From the NCBI GenBank assembly GCA_049969855.1, contig JBMFOB010000012.1:1-41505 (forward strand): DNA of 41,505 bases, given 5' to 3'. Both the position numbers and the translations under genes were made by a program. The number at the start of each line of letters is the position of its first letter. The stretch's first letter is position 1. This document shows positions 320 to 41,505 of this stretch, in pieces. Below the pieces are notes generated by a model. The model saw only the letters and a list, made by a program, of their open reading frames with translations, ran no database searches and was not told the origin of the DNA. The stretch comes from Candidatus Bathyarchaeia archaeon (GTDB lineage: Archaea; Thermoproteota; Bathyarchaeia; Bathyarchaeales; Bathycorpusculaceae).

Positions 320-1624
320 TTATGCTGTTTTCCTTATGAGTATTTTGCCTGATGGGAGGACTGCTTGGACATCCCATCCTTTGGCTAAGTAGCGTTCAAG
401 CTCTTTTTCGTCTACAATCTTTTTTGGGTCGCTGTATGAGTTTTCCTTCAGCTTATAACTTTCTAGACTTAGCTTCCTTATTTCTTCCATGGCTTCGTCT
501 ACTGTGGTGTATTTGGCTAATGCTTCTTCGACACTTTTAATCTTCTCTTCTGGGAAGCCGAGCAGACGGACCATGTCTAATATTTGTCTCTTTCTAAACT
601 GTTCTGTGGATGTTGTTTGTGGGAAGAAGATGATTTGCGAATACTTTTTCCTAAGCTCTTCAACTTTACTATAGTCGTAGTAGGCGTCTTGACTGCCTGG
701 TAGTATGTGTCCCATCAGAAATTCCTGGTCTTTGATGTCTAATCCGGCGTTTCTAAGGGCTGATTCAAAGGCTTTCCTTAAACAGTGGGGGTAAACGTCC
801 ATCCAACGTTTTATTCCAGCCTTTTTCGCAGCTTTTTTAACCATGGCTTCAAGACTTTTTTTCATTACTGGTGTGCGTCTTCGGATGTCCGCTTTGATGT
901 ATTTGCTTTCAGCTATAAAGAGGGGTTCATTGTCCGCTATGCCTCCATATATTTTCTTCCTTTCCTCAAGATATTGGCGCAGCGTTTGGACGGCTTCTCT
1001 TGAAATGAACGAGTAGTATGGTATGTTGCCCTTGCAGGCTCCTGGATCAACCTTCTTCATTTCAGGATAAACTGGAACTTTAATTATTTCTAAACCAGCT
1101 TCCAATTCATCTTTAATGTCCCTATAAAGGAGTGCCCGGAGGCTGGAGTTTCTAAGTCCGCTTGTGTAGAGGCATAGGATTAAAGCCTTGTTTCGCAGGC
1201 TCCCAGATGCGAGAGCCATGGCGTAGATCTCGTCGGCTGTAGGGATATATTCGCTTCTTTTTCTATATCTGGAAGGCTGATGGTGCCTTTCAACCTCAAC
1301 TTCCCTATTGCCTTTGAAACCGTTAACCCTGAAGAAAGTTTTAAGATAAGCCAAAGAAACGTTCACATAGCGGACACTGAAACCCTTCTCAGCCAAGCCG
1401 TCAACATAATCCTGCAAAAGCTTAGAAGCCTCCTTCGGAGAAAGCCTAACAAGCTCATCTGGACTCTTGCCGGCAAAATCGCAGAAAGACTTCAAAGTTA
1501 CACAAATGTTCTCGCGAGTTTTAAGGCTCCTAGACTTACGCGCATAATGCCTAAGAAACAAGTTAACGCCCTCATAATCACTTCCCCAATCCCTAACCTT
1601 AAGAAAACCCTCCCAACTTTTCAA
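320..1624 (-). CDS. Tyrosine recombinase / site-specific integrase
   Basis: Catalytic motifs LYTSGLR, HCLRK, LMGH and YY, plus an N-terminal core-binding region. Start moved from 1711 to TTG 1624 because it follows GGTGG and a TTTATAAA box at about 1656-1663. Confidence 0.92.
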   Translation of the reverse strand: MKSWEGFLKVRDWGSDYEGVNLFLRHYARKSRSLKTRENICVTLKSFCDFAGKSPDELVRLSPKEASKLLQDYVDGLAEKGFSVRYVNVSLAYLKTFFRVNGFKGNREVEVERHHQPSRYRKRSEYIPTADEIYAMALASGSLRNKALILCLYTSGLRNSSLRALLYRDIKDELEAGLEIIKVPVYPEMKKVDPGACKGNIPYYSFISREAVQTLRQYLEERKKIYGGIADNEPLFIAESKYIKADIRRRTPVMKKSLEAMVKKAAKKAGIKRWMDVYPHCLRKAFESALRNAGLDIKDQEFLMGHILPGSQDAYYDYSKVEELRKKYSQIIFFPQTTSTEQFRKRQILDMVRLLGFPEEKIKSVEEALAKYTTVDEAMEEIRKLSLESYKLKENSYSDPKKIVDEKELERYLAKGWDVQAVLPSGKILIRKTA

Positions 1625-6717: not shown

Positions 6718-6741
6718 ATTTTCACCTCTCAATTAGTTTAT

Positions 6742-6792
6742 GGTTCAGCCTTTTGTAGGCTACATCCCAGCGGACGATTTATCCGCCAGTGC
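6742..6792 (-). promoter_or_regulatory. Structured 5' leader of rpl15e (ribosomal-protein leader candidate)
   Basis: Two hairpins, CUGGCGGAU/GUCCGCUGG and AGCCU/AGGCU (the second flanked by GGAUGU and GAACC), between a TTTATTT box (~6820) and the RBS. Confidence 0.65.
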
Positions 6793-31982: not shown

Positions 31983-32120
31983 TTCTATCGTGGGCAGGTC
32001 AAGGTTTAAATTATCGCTTTTGTTCAAAGTCAAAATCTGGGCAATAGATGCCAGAAAAAAGTCTGTGTCAATATTTTGTGGGAGAAAAGGGAAGGCATGT
32101 TTTGTTGTAGGCTTTTCTGA

Positions 32121-33011
32121 TTATGCAGGCAGCGCTATCACAGTTAATGTTCTCTCACCTACGATGCCCCTTGTCGCTGAAGATGAAATCAGCCACTGTA
32201 TCTTGACTGTGTGGACGCCCACGGTGACATCTGGTAAGTTGAAGGTGAAAGAATAAGATCCTGCGTTGTTAAGAGTCGCCTTTGTTAAACCTACTACCAT
32301 TGGATAAGGTATCGGAGTAGTCGAGGTTGGAACGTAAGCTCGTATATTAAGAGAGTATCCAGCCGTCTCCACATAAGCAAAACCACTGAACATAATAATC
32401 AAGTGGCTTGTTCGTGCCAAGGTTATGTTGACAGACATGTCAGGCATGTCTACCCATGATGTTGATGTTGTCACTTCTGAATATGGGCTGACAGCATAAG
32501 CGAAGGGAATTGCCTCCGATGCGAGTTTGATGTTAGTTACTGCGTAGTCACCTATTGTAGTTGTTGTAACAGCACCGTCAGCTATTTTGATGGTAGTGAC
32601 AGCTCCTGTAGCCAAGTCTGCAGCTGTCACGCTTCCATCTATTATCTTCGCAGAGGTAATTGAATTGTCGGCTAACTTAATTGTTACAATGGCGCCGTCT
32701 GCAATCTTGGCACTGGTTATTGAGCCGTCAGCTATTTTGGTTGTGGTTATTCCGCTATCAGCAATTTTCACAGCAATGATGGAGCCATCTGCCATGTCGA
32801 CCGCTGTTATTGAGCCATCCAATATTTTTGCCGAGGTAACACTTCCATCAGCTAACTTTGCAGTTATGACAGCATTGTCCGCAATTTGATTTGTTCCAAT
32901 AAGGACGGAGGGAGTGAAGTAAACAATAGCCAGAGTAGTAATTAAAGATAGAATCCATGTCGCTGCGATTATGGGAATTGCCTTCTTTATAGGAATTGTT
33001 ATTTCACTCAT
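32121..33011 (-). CDS. Membrane-anchored decapeptide-repeat (IADGSITxxK) fibre-like protein
   Basis: N-terminal TM, 12-13 ten-residue repeats, C-terminal beta-sandwich head. Start uncertain (33011, 33029 or 33044). Confidence 0.8.
   Translation of the reverse strand: MSEITIPIKKAIPIIAATWILSLITTLAIVYFTPSVLIGTNQIADNAVITAKLADGSVTSAKILDGSITAVDMADGSIIAVKIADSGITTTKIADGSITSAKIADGAIVTIKLADNSITSAKIIDGSVTAADLATGAVTTIKIADGAVTTTTIGDYAVTNIKLASEAIPFAYAVSPYSEVTTSTSWVDMPDMSVNITLARTSHLIIMFSGFAYVETAGYSLNIRAYVPTSTTPIPYPMVVGLTKATLNNAGSYSFTFNLPDVTVGVHTVKIQWLISSSATRGIVGERTLTVIALPA
32508..32885 (-). repeat. Degenerate 30-bp coding tandem repeat
   Basis: IADNAVITAK/LADGSVTSAK/ILDGSITAVD/.../IGDYAVTNIK. Confidence 0.85.
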
Positions 33012-33411
33012 TTTCTTTTTCTCCTTCATAATGTTGCCAGTCAATTTCTTTTGGTTTGTTTAAAAGGTTTTGCAATACTTTAGAGAATGTGATTTTTGGT
33101 GTCTTTTCTGGGTTTTCCATTGGATATTAGTTTAAAAATTCTGTCCAGAAAAATGGTATCAATTTAAAAAATAAAAGTTCTTTTCACTTATAGTATTCAT
33201 TCAAGCTCATTTTATGGCTTTTTAACAGAAAAGGTCGTAAATATTGTCTTAACCCCGATGTTTTAAACCGATATTTGAACCTATCCCGGGATACTATAAG
33301 ATTTTCTTTAATTTCGATGAAAGCCGAGAAGTCGCCATGATAGTTTATGGAAAACCTAGAGGGGGGAGGTCCATATTGGTTTGATTTCACGCCAAAAGTA
33401 TGGAGAAACTT

Positions 33412-33716: not shown

Positions 33717-35147
33717 TTAAGCTGTTGATTTTTCAATTTTCCATTTTACGCCTTGAGGTGTATCCTCAATTGTTATGCCCATAGCCTTAAGTTGTTCCCT
33801 AATTTTGTCTGCTGTTTGCCAATCTTTGGCTTTTCTGGCTTCCTCTCTTTTACGGATTAGCTCTTCAGCCTCCTTAGGCAGTTTCTCCTCCTTCTTAACT
33901 TCGCCGATAACCCCTAAAACTTTGTCAAACTTCATCATTAAACGGTAAACTTCCACTGCTTCATCCTTGCTGAGCACGTTATCATCCATAAGCTTGTTTA
34001 CTTCGGATACAAAGTTGAACAAGGCAGCTAATGCAACGCCAATGTTCAAGTCGTCATCCATAGCGTCTCCAAAATCTTTTTCCACATGTTGCATGAGCTC
34101 TTTTATCTTTTTTCCGCAGCCTTTTCCATCAGCATCCAATAGTCTATAAACAAAATTTGTTAGACGGTCAACAGCGCTTTTTGCTGCTTTTAATCCTTCA
34201 AAGGTGAAGTTTAACTGTTGCCGATAATGGGTTGACATGAGCAAGTAACGAACAGCCTTGGGGTTGTAGCCCATTTTGATTAAATCCCTCAAAGTGTAAT
34301 AGTTGCCAAATCGCTTTGCCATCCGCTTTCCTTCAACAAGCAAATGCTCATTATGAAGCCAATAATTCACAAACTTTTTACCCGTTGCTGCTTCACTTTG
34401 GGCTATTTCATTTTCATGATGGGGAAAAATTAGGTCAACCCCGCCGCTGTGAATGTCTATTGTTTCGCCAAGATACTTCATCGCCATAGTTGAACATTCA
34501 ATGTGCCATCCAGGTCTTCCCTTGCCAAGTTCAGTTTCCCAGAAAACGTCGCCGTCCTCTTCATCCCAAGCCTTCCATAAAGCGAAATCGCAAGCCTCCT
34601 CCTTCTCATACTCTTGCACTTTCACCCTAGCGCCTGCTTTAAGCTCTTTAACCTTGAATTTTGAAAGCTTTCCATAATCTTTAAACTTTGAAATGTCATA
34701 GTAGATTGAGCCATCTTCAGCCTTGTAGGCGTAGCCTTTCGCTATCAGTTTTTTAATTAATGCAACCATTTCTGGGATGTGCTCAGTTGCTCTTGGATAA
34801 AAATCCGCCTTCTCAATGTTAAGCATAGTTATATCTTCAAAAAAAGCTTGAATGTATTGTGCCGTGTGCTGTTTAAGCGGAATCCCAAGTTTACTGGAAG
34901 CCTCAATGGTTCGGTCATCTACGTCTGTAAGGTTCATGACTTGCGTTACCTTGAAACCCCGATACTCCAGCCATCTTCTAAGCAGGTCTTCAAAGATGAA
35001 CGCTCTAAAGTTTCCTATGTGGGCAAAATCGTAAACTGTGGGTCCGCAAGTGTACATTTTAACCTTGCCCTTTTCTAAAGGGATGAACTTCTCCTTTTTG
35101 CGGGTCAAAGTGTTAAAGAAATGTAAATTTTCAGCTGAGTCGTTCAT
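33717..35147 (-). CDS. cysS: Cysteine--tRNA ligase
   Basis: CGPTVY, HIGN, DFALWK, GRPGWHIECS, FPHHENE. Confidence 0.98.
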   Translation of the reverse strand: MNDSAENLHFFNTLTRKKEKFIPLEKGKVKMYTCGPTVYDFAHIGNFRAFIFEDLLRRWLEYRGFKVTQVMNLTDVDDRTIEASSKLGIPLKQHTAQYIQAFFEDITMLNIEKADFYPRATEHIPEMVALIKKLIAKGYAYKAEDGSIYYDISKFKDYGKLSKFKVKELKAGARVKVQEYEKEEACDFALWKAWDEEDGDVFWETELGKGRPGWHIECSTMAMKYLGETIDIHSGGVDLIFPHHENEIAQSEAATGKKFVNYWLHNEHLLVEGKRMAKRFGNYYTLRDLIKMGYNPKAVRYLLMSTHYRQQLNFTFEGLKAAKSAVDRLTNFVYRLLDADGKGCGKKIKELMQHVEKDFGDAMDDDLNIGVALAALFNFVSEVNKLMDDNVLSKDEAVEVYRLMMKFDKVLGVIGEVKKEEKLPKEAEELIRKREEARKAKDWQTADKIREQLKAMGITIEDTPQGVKWKIEKSTA

Positions 35148-35202
35148 GGTTTTCCGTTTTTAAAAATGCTGATGCAAGATTTAAGGATTTTATCTAAACA
35201 GA

Positions 35203-35349
35203 CTAATCGTATTTTCTTAGTTTTATCATTTCTCTGAAGTTCTTAAGGTCTTTAGCTACATACCTAAGAAAGTGCAGCTCCTCCATCATCTTTGCAAATT
35301 TCACGAATTCTTCGTTGATTTTCTGGAGGTGATGTTCTTTTTCGCTCAT
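35203..35349 (-). CDS. Small helical protein, 48 aa (not in ORF track)
   Basis: MSEKEHHLQKINEEFVKFAKMMEELHFLRYVAKDLKNFREMIKLRKYD; AAGGCGA RBS-like motif upstream; amphipathic pattern. Confidence 0.65.
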   Translation of the reverse strand: MSEKEHHLQKINEEFVKFAKMMEELHFLRYVAKDLKNFREMIKLRKYD

Positions 35350-35365
35350 TCATTTTCGCCTTCAT

Positions 35366-35510
35366 GTATGCTTGGAGTGAAGGGCTTTCATTGTTTTTTG
35401 GCTAAACCCGCAGCCATTTCCGTCATCGAGGAGAAAGGAGAAGGCTTCGAAAAACGGAAAAACAATTCTCGGCTGCTTGTGGTTTAGCCTTCAACCTCAG
35501 CCCTCCATAC
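35366..35510 (-). ncRNA. Structured RNA of unknown class (nested rod-like hairpin)
   Basis: Six nested helices: GTATG/CATAC, AGGGCT/AGCCCT, GGCTAAACC/GGTTTAGCC, GCAGCC/GGCTGC, TTTCCGT/ACGGAAA, TCGA/TCGA. Minus-strand TTTTATA box at about 35541-35547. Confidence 0.65.
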
Positions 35511-35589
35511 TGCATCGTAAGACTTAAGACGCTTTACGCCTATAAAAGCATTACTGAATAAAACGAACATACAAACATCAAAATAACGT

Positions 35590-36144
35590 TTAGCCTATAG
35601 CCAAAATACCTTCCAAAATCTTCTTCTCAGGAATTTCCAACTGCTTAGAAAGCCAAGTCTTCAGCAAAGCCGTAGATTTTGGAAGTTCGCCACTGTAGGT
35701 TATGATTTGATTGTCCTTTAATGCGTCAACCTGAAAGGTTTTTTCAGCTTCTCTGTAAAGGAAAGACAAAGTCTGAGCTTGATGAGCTAAAGTTTGGAAA
35801 TCCTCCCACTGTTTGCAACGCAAGATCACAGGCGGTCCACGAATTTCCTTAACTTGTAATGTCTCAGATTTTTGTTCCTGCACTCTTGGCGATGGCGCTG
35901 CTGAGGCTTCGCGAGGAGTTGATAAATATGTTATTAACCCCATTATTTCATTCTGTAATGATGTTAGCCTCTCTTCCACCTTCTCTATTTTACCGCTTAA
36001 CTCGCCAGCATCGCCCAACCTTTCGGTTATGTTTCCCAACTCATTTATTAGTCTGTCCAAGTCCTTCTCATGCTCTTTTAAGACGTTAACTATGAAATCT
36101 AGGGCTTCGAAAGCCTCGTCTTTCGATGGGGCTTTTTTAGACAT
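35590..36144 (-). CDS. Hypothetical protein (coiled coil plus alpha/beta domain)
   Basis: 184-aa ORF, AAGGTAG RBS-like motif, heptad N-terminal half. Confidence 0.8.
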   Translation of the reverse strand: MSKKAPSKDEAFEALDFIVNVLKEHEKDLDRLINELGNITERLGDAGELSGKIEKVEERLTSLQNEIMGLITYLSTPREASAAPSPRVQEQKSETLQVKEIRGPPVILRCKQWEDFQTLAHQAQTLSFLYREAEKTFQVDALKDNQIITYSGELPKSTALLKTWLSKQLEIPEKKILEGILAIG

Positions 36145-37788: not shown

Positions 37789-39216
37789 TCATTCTTTCCA
37801 AATGTTGAGAGGAGGCTTAAGGTCTGGAGGTATCGGCGATACATATTTCTTATTGCCTATTCTTCTGTGATGCTCCTCTTTTGCTTTCTCTAAAACATCT
37901 TTATCCTTTAAGAGTTCAATAGCTGTAGCAGCCATGACTTTCGCTGCAAATATCAGTGACCTATGTCCAATTCCAACACCACTTTGAGCTACTGCTTGCC
38001 ATGAGTGCGCAGGTGTGCCCAAAACCCAAGTTGCAGTGCCAAATTCCACAGTGGGCGTTTGCCAACTAACGTCAGCCACATCAGTACTACCATGACTAAC
38101 TTCGCCTTCCCCCCAAGGATCTGGAATCTCATCGTCAACCAGTTTATCTACAAGTTTTTCCCAGCCAGGACGTTTTGATTTCTTTAGTTGTGCAATTTTT
38201 GTTTCAGAGGTGATCGTCTTAGCAATTTCCTCAGCGAACTTTAAATCTTCGTTGCTGTACGAAGGAAGCCCAATTTCTCGCATATTCTTAACGATGAGTT
38301 CCGCTATGGTCTTGTTAGGAATAACATTGTAAAGTCCATCAATGAATTCCACCTTCAACTCGGTTTTCGTCATCATCGCAGCACCTCTGGCTATGTCAAG
38401 AATCCAATCGTATATGAATTCCACCTGATCCCTTTCCGGGGCTCTCACATAGTACCAACTTCTAGCGTATGATGGCACGATGTTCGGTTGGTCTCCACCC
38501 TTTTCAATTATATAATGTACTCTTGCATCTTGGATTATGTGTTCTCTAAGGTAATTCACTCCAATGTTCATTAATTCAACAGCGTCTAATGCACTTCTGC
38601 CATGTTCCGGGGAAGCTCCAGCATGAGATGCTATGCCATAAAAATGAAACTTTGCCGAGTTAATGGCTAAGCTGCTAAACATGGAAACATGATACATGGA
38701 ATCTGGATGGTGACTAATTACGGCGTCAACATCTTTGAAACATCCATCCCTAACCATGTAGACTTTGCCAGAAAAATTCTCTTCAGCAGGACATCCAAAA
38801 AATTTGATAGTGCCCCTTATCTTAAATTTTTCCATAGCCTCTTTCACCGCTATGGCAGCTGCCATACCGCTGCTTCCGTGAATATTATGTCCACATCCGT
38901 GTCCAGGTTTTCCAGATTCTAATGGTTCTTTCCGTGGAGTTCTTTTTTGTGATAGCCCTGGCAAAGCGTCATATTCGCCCATTATTCCTATAACTGGTTT
39001 CCCATCTCCCCATGTAGCTATGAAGGCTGTGGGCATTTCCGCAATTCCTCTTTCAACTTTGAATCCATTTTTTTCCAATTCATCTGCCAAAAGTGAAGAA
39101 GATTTAAACTCCACCAAGCCTAACTCGGCAAATTCCCAGATTTTGTCGCTTATTTCGATTATTCTACCCTTGCTATTCTCAATACATTCAAAGGCATACT
39201 CCTTCTCCGTAGGCAT
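37789..39216 (-). CDS. M20 amidohydrolase, AbgB-like
   Basis: EYDALPGLSQ, HGCGHN, PAEE, GSTDV.DVSW. True start is MPTEK (39216); the longer ORF runs through tRNA-Ala. Confidence 0.92.
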   Translation of the reverse strand: MPTEKEYAFECIENSKGRIIEISDKIWEFAELGLVEFKSSSLLADELEKNGFKVERGIAEMPTAFIATWGDGKPVIGIMGEYDALPGLSQKRTPRKEPLESGKPGHGCGHNIHGSSGMAAAIAVKEAMEKFKIRGTIKFFGCPAEENFSGKVYMVRDGCFKDVDAVISHHPDSMYHVSMFSSLAINSAKFHFYGIASHAGASPEHGRSALDAVELMNIGVNYLREHIIQDARVHYIIEKGGDQPNIVPSYARSWYYVRAPERDQVEFIYDWILDIARGAAMMTKTELKVEFIDGLYNVIPNKTIAELIVKNMREIGLPSYSNEDLKFAEEIAKTITSETKIAQLKKSKRPGWEKLVDKLVDDEIPDPWGEGEVSHGSTDVADVSWQTPTVEFGTATWVLGTPAHSWQAVAQSGVGIGHRSLIFAAKVMAATAIELLKDKDVLEKAKEEHHRRIGNKKYVSPIPPDLKPPLNIWKE

Positions 39217-39359
39217 AAATAACCACCTAGAATTAACAAATGAAAATGCGAATACTATTAAAAAGTTTATGTTCAATCCGCAGAACTCAGAGAGAACTGC
39301 TGAGCGAGCATAAGCTAAAACGAAAATACTTGATTTATCGATGAATAACAGCAAATTAG

Positions 39360-39434
39360 TGGACCGGGCGGGATTCGAACCCGCGGCCTCCACGATGCCA
39401 ACGTGGCGATCATTCCAGACTGATCTACCGGCCC
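39360..39434 (-). tRNA. tRNA-Ala(GGC)
   Basis: GGGCCGG/CCGGTCC with G3:U70, CCACG-TT-GGC-AT-CGTGG, TTCGAAT. Confidence 0.97.
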
Positions 39435-39554
39435 TCGACAGAGTTAAACAGAACAAAAAACTATTAAGTATTTTGCATAACGTCAGCGGATAATAGAGAA
39501 TATCTTCCAAAATTTAGTATTAAAAATGAAAAAGGAGTAGAGGTTGAAAAATTG

Positions 39555-41126: not shown

Positions 41127-41347
41127 TCCCTCCAAATTCTGTGTGGTTTCAATTAAAACAAGTGTTTATAAATAGTTTATTAAGTTCTAATAAAAAGCTG
41201 AATTATTAACTCTTATTCATCGAAAGTTAGATTCTGAATTAGAACAATAATCAATTTCACAAAAATTCTGAAAGCAATACAAACTGATCGCCATGCACAA
41301 GCCCTTTTCGCAGTTCACCCTTAAAATATCGTCCAGACACCACATGA

Positions 41348-41505
41348 GCCCGACACCTCGGGCGGTTGGGGGCCGCAGGCTGAACCGGTCGGCCGAAGCC
41401 TTCCGGCTTACACCCCGGCTCCATCAAACCCATCTTCTATGGGAGCCCTCGTCCCCTCGGCACGGGCTGTTGCCAGCCCAGCCATTTAGGGGATTGGCTG
41501 CCTAT
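41348..41505 (-). rRNA. rrl: 23S rRNA 3' end (partial)
   Basis: Reverse complement ...CGAGGGCTCCCATAGAAGATGGGTTTGATGGAGCCGGGGTGTAAG...GGTTCAGCCTGCGGCCCCCAACCGCCCGAG matches archaeal domain VI (H98-H101). Exact mature end approximate. Confidence 0.93.

Follow-up and report, generated by a model that had tools for sequence, protein, structure and literature searches.

Among the described systems closest to the RNA reported here are the Y RNAs, which work with the Ro60 (Rsr) protein and include YrlA, encoded beside rsr. Y RNAs are ~100-150 nucleotides (nt) long and pair their ends in a long stem; a basal internal loop or bulge is the protein site, the far loop is large and pyrimidine-rich, and the prokaryotic gene lies beside that of the partner. 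We know of no archaeal example. Here we describe a previously undescribed family of small structured non-coding RNAs of one order of Bathyarchaeia, found as a predicted rod of ~150 nt on the minus strand of a 41,505-nt stretch of a Candidatus Bathyarchaeia genome (assembly GCA_049969855.1, contig JBMFOB010000012.1, positions 1 to 41,505; hereafter the window). The region lies between two minus-strand genes, that of a conserved hypothetical protein of 184 amino acids (aa), hereafter open reading frame (ORF) 184 or ORF184, and cysS. The most stable neighbour of the RNA is ORF184, which the original prediction, made from the letters of the window, had overlooked in favour of a 48-aa ORF (ORF48). 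Bathyarchaeia are among the most abundant archaea of sediments and hot springs; to our knowledge none has been studied genetically, and their RNA biology is nearly unexplored.

The RNA is likewise within the size range of Y RNAs, with an end-pairing long stem, a basal internal loop and a large pyrimidine-rich loop at the far end. It differs in having no tRNA-like module and no match to an Rfam Y RNA, and the protein encoded beside it is acidic and combines a coiled coil with a predicted eL38-like domain; no match to TROVE/Ro60 (PF05731) was found at E ≤ 0.01 in the window's own genome, which is 93% complete. In the Alu domain of the signal recognition particle (SRP) with SRP9/14, and in the pairing of eL38 with 23S/28S ribosomal RNA (rRNA), a small domain is matched with a structured RNA, and the C-terminal domain of ORF184 has a predicted fold of the same alpha-beta-beta-beta-alpha type. 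Here, in contrast, the RNA is an unbranched rod with no Alu fold, ORF184 is acidic with a 70-residue coiled coil and no sequence similarity to those proteins, and no part of 23S rRNA resembles the rod. The canonical SRP RNA (C2:88366-88680, 181.5 bits) and eL38 are encoded elsewhere in the genome, as is the RNase P RNA (C9:39285-39590, 190 bits), and neither the SRP nor the RNase P RNA model matches the locus. Rfam 15 contains no family that reaches its gathering score here, the best permissive match being BsrC (21.5 bits, against a cut-off of 38), in agreement with the initial view that the element is new and is not a tRNA, SRP RNA, RNase P RNA or box C/D guide. A literature search returned nothing relevant on non-coding or small RNAs of Bathyarchaeota/Bathyarchaeia, and a 15-nt motif of the RNA, written as DNA or as RNA, was without a match.

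Three further comparisons bear on how the locus is to be read. OLE RNA with OapA, and 6S RNA with ygfA, were likewise found by comparative genomics as lineage-conserved RNAs with a characteristic flanking gene and a function unknown at discovery; compared with OLE, the present RNA is much smaller, archaeal and a single hairpin-like rod. In functional terms, orphan RNAs of the OLE kind, with a linked protein gene, and Y RNAs offer the closest analogies. We know of no functional meaning of the 6S-ygfA adjacency, and the link to ORF184 should therefore be read with caution. 6S itself is a ligand of bacterial RNA polymerase (sigma70 holoenzyme) and mimics an open promoter through its central bubble. 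The suggestion that the rod is a 6S-like promoter mimic found nothing in its favour, as the fold has no large central bubble and there is no Rfam 6S match. CsrB/RsmZ and RsaE/RoxS expose a short motif in the loop of a hairpin; mRNAs carry that motif too in the Csr case, and its complement in the case of RsaE. The present RNA has one motif of 18 nt, as opposed to many of 4-6 nt in CsrB/RsmZ, and no complementary target was found in the scans given below; we know of no CsrA-like partner in archaea. Finally, the box H/ACA and C/D guide small RNAs (sRNAs) of archaea resemble the present RNA in size, are built on hairpins and contain boxes similar to GAUGA.

The predicted RNA and its parts are as follows, with positions counted along the window and helices given as paired segments.
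35540-35559, minus strand: putative archaeal-type promoter, with TTTATA at 35541-35546 preceded by the conserved ATTCAGTAAT
35513-35529, minus strand: conserved, nearly invariant 17-nt element TCTTAAGTCTTACGATG, spanning the predicted transcription start
35368-35518, minus strand: predicted rod RNA of ~150 nt, from the fold, the covariance model and covariation, with approximate ends
35512-15/35368-71, minus strand: helix P0, from the fold
35378-86/35499-507, minus strand: helix P1 of 9 base pairs (bp) in the minimum free energy (MFE) fold, taking in 35381-86/35499-504
35487-35498, minus strand: 5' strand of the internal loop, GAGGUUGAAGGC, with AGGTTGA(A/G)GGC nearly invariant in 124 sequences
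35382-35402, minus strand: 3' strand of the internal loop, GCC-AAAAAACAAUGAA-AGCCC, consensus CCAAnAAnCRRUGAA
35400-08/35481-89, minus strand: helix P2, a perfect 9 bp in the MFE fold
35410-15/35471-76, 35417-23/35454-60 and 35426-29/35447-50, minus strand: further helices of the rod (P3, P4 region) in the MFE fold
35428-35450, minus strand: invariant apex UCGAAGCCUUCUCCUUUCUCCUC, 23 nt
35430-35447, minus strand: apex core AAGCCUUCUCCUUUCUCC, kept by homologues of the RNA in most families

Positions 35360-35515 of the minus strand give an unbranched rod with an MFE of -56.0 kcal/mol, compared with -38.9 +/- 4.3 for dinucleotide shuffles (z -4.0), none of 200 of which was as good, and the rod-like RNA first proposed for this strand is borne out. 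The fold of the plus strand is weaker, at -50.4 kcal/mol (z -2.6), a value equalled or bettered by 2 of 200 shuffles. Five of the six nested helices of the original prediction are in the MFE fold, and the sixth, 35366-70/35506-10, is an alternative register that competes with P1; covariation supports the P1 register. The apical loop, AGCCUUCUCCUUUCUCC, is as it had been described, 17 nt with two CUCC motifs, and stays unpaired in the MFE fold. Between the stems there is one large loop only, and it is one-sided: its 5' strand has 9-12 variable nt, its 3' strand 0-3. Many pairs are G.U (at alignment columns 25/158, those of 74 of the 99 sequences), where the opposite strand would have C.A mismatches. 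This preference, together with the orientation of the TATA box, identifies the minus strand as the RNA strand.

The fold is conserved through compensatory change. A covariance model (R1), built from 17 sequences of the window's class (class A, below) and their shared MFE architecture, matched 99 of the 100 loci searched, including window positions 35375-35509 of the minus strand at 146.3 bits. In the resulting alignment of 99 sequences, 90.3% of 3713 cells are standard pairs, compared with 80.3% in column shuffles (none of 500 reached 90.3%), and 30 of 40 base pairs have compensatory changes on both sides. When the partner was slid by 1-3 columns, pairing dropped to 27-51%, at most 50.6% of cells. 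P1, P2 and P3 all covary; the apical helix is invariable, and its UCGA/UCGA pairing is absent in 11 of the 99. Both the slid controls and the number of different pair types speak for a real covariation signal. RNAalifold on a plain MAFFT alignment of 124 sequences returned 8 pairs between two invariant segments and no compensatory changes, a result that is uninformative because the variable stems are misaligned there, and the covariance-model alignment was used instead. Counting P2 pairs by distance from sequence anchors held for three pairs and was then lost to bulges.

Around and within the rod, certain elements are constrained in sequence. The TATA-like box noted earlier, TTTATA, and the block upstream of it are kept in a 20-sequence alignment and in 123 distinct loci, and we infer from this conservation that they are the B recognition element (BRE) and TATA box of the RNA gene. 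Archaeal TATA-to-start spacing would place the transcription start at the A at ~35518, the 23rd nt after the TATA box. The 5' strand of the internal loop is also kept in divergent relatives of other families. On the 3' strand, 83 of 124 distinct loci have the RTGA part; in the stand-alone class described below, an extra helix takes its place. The apex is identical in all 20 relatives found by BLASTN, which were not chosen by an apex pattern; ~35 nt are identical there while the stems differ. Divergent versions in other families retain a CU-rich core at the apex. With covariation in its stems, a putative promoter of its own, a fixed neighbour and an apex that varies no more than rRNA does from genus to genus, the RNA bears the marks of functional importance. 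In family f7 (L235 ~175-200, G030; L236, G089), the conserved 5' element forms a perfect hairpin of its own, GUCUUAC-GAU-GUAAGAC, ahead of P1. This suggests that GUCUUAC belongs to the transcript in that family, although the TATA spacing in the window puts it at or before the start.

The family is distributed at the level of an order and concentrated in one family; it is not class-wide. At E ≤ 1e-16, BLASTN of 35150-35600 against 40 relatives matched 20 of the 24 that share the window's family and 2 of the 16 from other families of the order, with one further other-family match at 2.4e-5. Among 81 genomes sampled from the order, 21 contain the RNA according to R1 (f1 14/15, f2 3/3, f3 1/5, f6 2/15, none in other families), and the 18-nt core, with at most one mismatch, is present in 9 of 101 genomes across the class (6/7 in f1, 1/82 outside the order). 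The exact 23-nt apex occurs in at least 120 public stretches, one genome per species, nearly all labelled Candidatus Bathyarchaeia or Bathyarchaeota. Together with earlier loci, these stretches make up a set of 140 loci, 123 of them distinct over 340 nt. Two main forms were seen. Class A, that of the window, has CCAAnAAnCRRUGAA as the 3' strand of the basal loop and ORF48 ~35-45 nt after the RNA, with no T-run between them. Class B, the stand-alone form, keeps promoter, rod, internal loop and apex; it has an extra helix instead of RUGAA, its ends form the pairing GUUAGUG/CACUAAC, and what follows it is not ORF48 but A/T-rich runs. Two loci, L054 and L056, have only the apex in common with the family. 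Of 14 stretches inspected downstream of ORF184 in other families, 6 contain divergent homologues; these retain the promoter along with GUCUUACGAUG, GAGGUUGA and CCAACAAACGAUGAA, and their CU-rich apices have diverged, for example to GCUUUCUCCUUUCUCUU and CUCCUUUCUCUCUC. Four public runs, all of them contigs, were aligned to the locus and show a depth peak at 35384-35497 (the two labelled metatranscriptomic are probably DNA and cover it as the DNA run of the same study does). The peak comes from cross-species conservation only and does not bear on expression.

The genes of the locus are, in the order in which the minus strand is read:
35590-36144, minus strand: ORF184, 184-aa conserved hypothetical protein in the ORF list, directly upstream of the RNA
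35203-35349, minus strand: ORF48, 48-aa ORF between the RNA and cysS
33717-35147, minus strand: cysS, matching tRNA-synt_1e at 387 bits

At 131 of the 140 loci, the gene directly upstream of the RNA and in the same orientation is ORF184, and the rod lies at a constant 50-60 nt past its stop. The genes downstream vary: ORF48 was found at 87 loci by BLASTP (101 by clustering), cysS at 57 and glnA at 30. In one genome (G092) the order is reversed, the RNA lying 219 nt upstream of ORF184, and the adjacency of the two has thus survived a rearrangement. ORF184 is missing from 9 of the 140 loci, among them an outlier class (L050, L130, L131, L069, L096). Some genomes have two copies of ORF184, two RNA loci of different classes, or both (L068 and L075 in one metagenome-assembled genome, or MAG; L050 and L076 in another; C2 and C11 of G020), and the module has therefore been duplicated in places. 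Two stretches titled Acidiferrales or Acidoferrum (L040, L058) carry the Bathyarchaeal ORF184-RNA-ORF48 module together with relatives of glnA or cysS; they are probably misbinned archaeal contigs.

ORF184 has a long, acidic helix near its N-terminus (residues 8-75), joined through a disordered linker (76-101) to an alpha/beta domain at the C-terminus (106-178). It belongs to no Pfam or NCBIfam family (no Pfam match at E ≤ 0.1). Its homologues form 2439 clusters with names such as Bathycorpusculaceae, and the ESM Atlas gives only clusters of Bathyarchaeota hypothetical proteins. An AlphaFold2 (AF2) model, with a predicted local distance difference test score (pLDDT) of 76, arranges the C-terminal domain as beta-alpha-beta-beta-beta-alpha-beta. 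Foldseek matched this model to SRP9 chains (1e8o_A, 7nfx_w) and to eL38 chains with E-values of 5e-3 to 2e-2, and the top VIA-align match was Pyrobaculum eL38 (9e6q_Ae; Z 7.9, root-mean-square deviation 2.5 Å over 66 of 66 residues), a Z under 8 being middling. On this model, the C-terminal domain is predicted to adopt an eL38/SRP9-14-like fold, which is known from RNA-binding proteins. The genome encodes a separate canonical eL38 (PF01781, 35.6 bits).

Copies of the apex motif were found outside the RNA gene. An exact 19-nt copy, AAGCCUUCUCCUUUCUCCU, lies at C18:18422-18440 (L002 ~1500-1520, minus strand) of the window's own genome, in the loop of a small hairpin and 1 nt past the stop codon of a gene whose product, a membrane or surface protein of 486 aa, is rich in repeats. 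The motif follows the stop of orthologous surface-protein genes of 483-498 aa in six genomes of three genera, four of them from one genus (G000, G001, G003, G004) with G007 and G010 (loci L184, L189, L193, L165 and L186 besides L002). It stands 1-3 nt after the stop in five of the six and ~50 nt after it in G010. Across 41 genomes, a 16-nt motif with at most one mismatch gave 59 matches, compared with 4 for the reversed control. A pattern search also located one near-copy in the window:
32081-32096, minus strand: GCCTTCCCTTTTCTCC, with 2 mismatches, ~25 nt after the stop of the ORF at 32121-33044
That ORF encodes a surface-protein-like product of 307 aa that has a membrane helix at its N-terminus and repeats of the ADGS(I/V)T type. 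All extra copies have the same sense as the RNA loop, which points to a common reader of the sequence and not to RNA-RNA pairing among the copies.

We therefore ask what reads the loop, and our working answer, to which we give slightly less than an even chance, is that the element is a trans-acting small RNA, likely part of a ribonucleoprotein (RNP), and that its loop serves for sequence-specific recognition, a site that a few mRNAs have as well. The RNA would be transcribed on the minus strand from its own BRE/TATA promoter and fold into a ~150-nt rod with paired 5' and 3' ends, a scaffold whose stems could vary freely while pairing is kept. The rod would present an asymmetric basal internal loop (AGGUUGAAGGC opposite CCAAnAAnCRRUGAA) and a large apical loop containing AAGCCUUCUCCUUUCUCC. 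It would act in trans within the RNP, the apical loop being read by a protein or by conserved cellular machinery. The partner would most likely be tied to ORF184 and, in the lineage of the window, to the basic ORF48 from the same transcript. As the same-sense motif recurs in a hairpin after the stop codon of the surface protein, the RNA and this mRNA probably share a binder; they may compete for it, as a decoy would by titration, or be marked by it.

Several observations weigh against this proposal. First, kept adjacency alone proves neither a physical nor a functional link between the RNA and ORF184. Second, the resemblance of ORF184 to eL38 and SRP9 is at the level of the fold only: there is no sequence signal, and hhalign against the genome's own eL38 gave a probability of 0.3%. 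Third, ORF184 is acidic (isoelectric point, pI, ~5), which is unusual for an RNA-binding protein and weakens the idea that ORF184 itself binds the RNA; its C-terminal domain is roughly neutral. Fourth, ORF184 occurs more widely than the RNA can be detected (57 of 81 genomes at E ≤ 1e-5, 44 of them full-length, compared with 21 of 81), and in genus g36, which has ORF184, the RNA was found in none of three genomes. The extra motif copies are sporadic, with exact ones in some genomes only, and each RNA carries one motif copy, unlike classical protein-sponge RNAs. Finally, the covariance alignment was fitted to its own model, and related sequences inflate the shuffle test.

A bolder form of the proposal, which we regard as possible but rather improbable, is that the rod RNA and ORF184, with ORF48 in some lineages, make up a new kind of archaeal RNP, in which conserved machinery of the cell, for example the ribosome or a factor that handles mRNAs, would read the loop and the particle would control or mark a few mRNAs that bear the same loop after their stop codons, notably that of a major surface protein. 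An RNP that controls motif-bearing mRNAs would be a post-transcriptional system without a described archaeal counterpart, and, were its partner the ribosome or a translation factor, a new mode of archaeal translational control. The ORF184 family gains its first functional lead. The RNA family is missing from Rfam, and adding it would improve the annotation of hundreds of MAGs. The question raised is which molecule reads AAGCCUUCUCCUUUCUCC, a sequence that the RNA shares with the region after a surface-protein gene.

In our reading, the RNA is more than a leader of ORF48. That it is a cis-acting 5' leader of the ORF48 mRNA, controlling translation or stability, for example through binding by ORF48 or ORF184, is the reading closest to the coupling with ORF48 first proposed, and we consider it unlikely. 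Judged from 53 distinct homologues (consensus ..EEFxKFxKTMEELxxLKxVAxDLKSYRxMIxLKKYD), ORF48 is a real conserved gene, and its product is basic (pI ~9-10). It starts 90-113 nt after the apex in the window and at the loci that have it. The P1 end at 35378 lies ~14 nt before a Shine-Dalgarno (SD)-like GAAGGCG (35357-35363) and 29 nt before the ORF48 ATG; reading the sequence between the RNA and ORF48 in the window revealed no TATA box or T-run, so that ORF48 is probably transcribed from the promoter of the RNA in class-A loci. The RTGA motif and ORF48 also tend to occur together: of 124 distinct loci, 75 have both, 37 neither, 8 the motif only and 4 the ORF only. A functional tie between the two was considered and set aside; distant relatives have the motif with ORF48 at 0 of 7 loci, where flanks are short, and the association is read as phylogenetic. 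As a general explanation, the leader fails on the stand-alone class, which keeps promoter, rod, internal loop and apex with no ORF48 nearby (0 of 5 class-B genomes, searched genome-wide). Nor is there sequestration of the ribosome-binding site, whose pairing with the 5' element is not above chance (mean z -0.36; 4 of 34 below -2), and 18-26 invariant nt of loop exceed the need of a lineage-specific leader. A predicted complex of ORF184 with ORF48 scored 0.02, which speaks neither for nor against their binding.

We think it equally unlikely that the element is a base-pairing sRNA whose CU-rich loop, with its two CUCC motifs, blocks GGAG SD regions of mRNAs, as the C-rich loops of RsaE/RoxS pair with SD regions in Firmicutes. 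The part of this idea that stands is the loop itself, single-stranded and complementary to GGAG/GGAGG; the 16S 3' end of these archaea is ...GGAUCACCUCCU, and SD sequences of the GGAGG type are therefore expected. No conserved target was found in the scans that follow. A genome-wide duplex scan with the loop recovered the antisense of the motif-bearing loci and otherwise scored no better than ordinary purine-rich coding sequence. The window's own assembly has no 16S gene (its last 16S bases are at a contig start, G000 C7:106-125) and its 23S gene is cut; a test on this genome alone would be blind to rRNA, and relatives were therefore used. In G012, the loop scored -29.3 kcal/mol with 16S and its flanks, where minima of shuffled loops run from -24 to -35, and -25.5 kcal/mol with 23S, where they run from -24 to -30; neither value stands out. 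The extra motif copies are of the same sense and not complementary, and an SD seed needs 6-8 nt, not 18-26 invariant ones.

A conserved CUGGAGGAGAAAGG was seen in a predicted processing stem of the 16S 3' trailer of some relatives (L198 ~2570-2585, from G012; L196, from G023; L199; L200), ~25-30 nt after the mature 16S 3' end, with 11 nt complementary to the RNA loop. As a target, the 11-nt complement GAGGAGAAAGG (G012, G023) was rejected: it is present in only 2 of 151 genomes of the order, 100 of which include a 16S end, and in the own genome, where the complement is not there, the trailer gave -15.6 against a shuffled mean of -12.7. Mimicry of rRNA was rejected as well, BLASTN-short of the rod against 16S and 23S finding chance 7-11-mers only. 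In G012, the 16S (C1:1372047-1373541) and 23S (C1:545363-548402) genes are unlinked, with no 23S in the 6.5 kb downstream of 16S.

Less probable again is a structural element of an ORF184-(RNA)-ORF48 transcript, that is, a stabiliser in a 3' untranslated or intercistronic region, or a processing site. Its constant, same-strand position after the ORF184 stop and the lack of an obvious terminator between ORF184 and the rod in the window are what such an element would show. The conserved BRE/TATA block stands at fixed spacing between ORF184 and the rod, however, and the RNA is found upstream of ORF184 in G092 and without it at nine loci; moreover, a stabiliser hairpin would not require an invariant loop sequence.

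We give very little weight to a kink-turn (K-turn) RNA of the L7Ae type, akin to C/D or H/ACA guides, in which two GAUGA boxes on the 3' strand, opposite UUGA and UCGA, would form C'/D'-like K-turns or a K-loop. GAUGA does follow the CU loop in most members, a second box, (C/A)RAUGAA, lies in the basal loop opposite UUGAA, and GAUGA/UCGA and GAUGAA/UUGAA could form tandem G.A pairs. The bulges are 5-7 nt instead of 3, however, the apical GAUGA becomes GAUA, GAACAA, GAAUG and the like in many members, the basal box is lost in the stand-alone class, and there are no 12-nt guide spacers. As an H/ACA guide the RNA was rejected because ACA, which many members have 9-11 nt past the 3' strand of P2, is GCG, ACG, GCA or GGC in others, and because the pocket is one-sided, with no 16S/23S complementarity beyond shuffles. 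As a C/D guide it was rejected because the C-like boxes are on the 3' strand and the D-like ones on the 5', giving a D-then-C order, because CUGA at 35498-35501 is GCUA or GCUU in relatives, and because there was no rRNA-complementary guide and no Rfam C/D match above 19.4 bits.

That there is no functional RNA at all, the locus being a miniature inverted-repeat transposable element, a coding stretch or a DNA-level protein-binding palindrome, is barely credible: a listed 30-aa ORF (35423-35515) does overlap the rod, and TCTTAAG-T-CTTAAGA is palindromic in some relatives, yet the own 1.28-Mb genome has a single full-length copy (the next match is a 19-nt identity), relatives have one locus each in conserved synteny, the 30-aa ORF is not coding because stem indels are not multiples of three, the changes are compensatory and not synonymous, and the G.U preference is strand-specific.

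The Rfam scan of the window also returned three tRNAs, a ribosomal-protein leader and, where the window ends, an rRNA:
41346-41505: 3' end of an archaeal large-subunit (LSU) rRNA, the 23S gene being cut off at the end of the window
An ORF of 573 aa at 37789-39510 (minus strand) overlaps at its 5' end the tRNA gene at 39360-39434; because the listed ORF runs through the tRNA, the true start of this amidohydrolase/peptidase-like gene lies further downstream. The ribosomal-protein leader is a match of 45 bits to eL15-Euryarchaeota at 6737-6786 (minus strand), in a Bathyarchaeia host outside the group for which that family is named.

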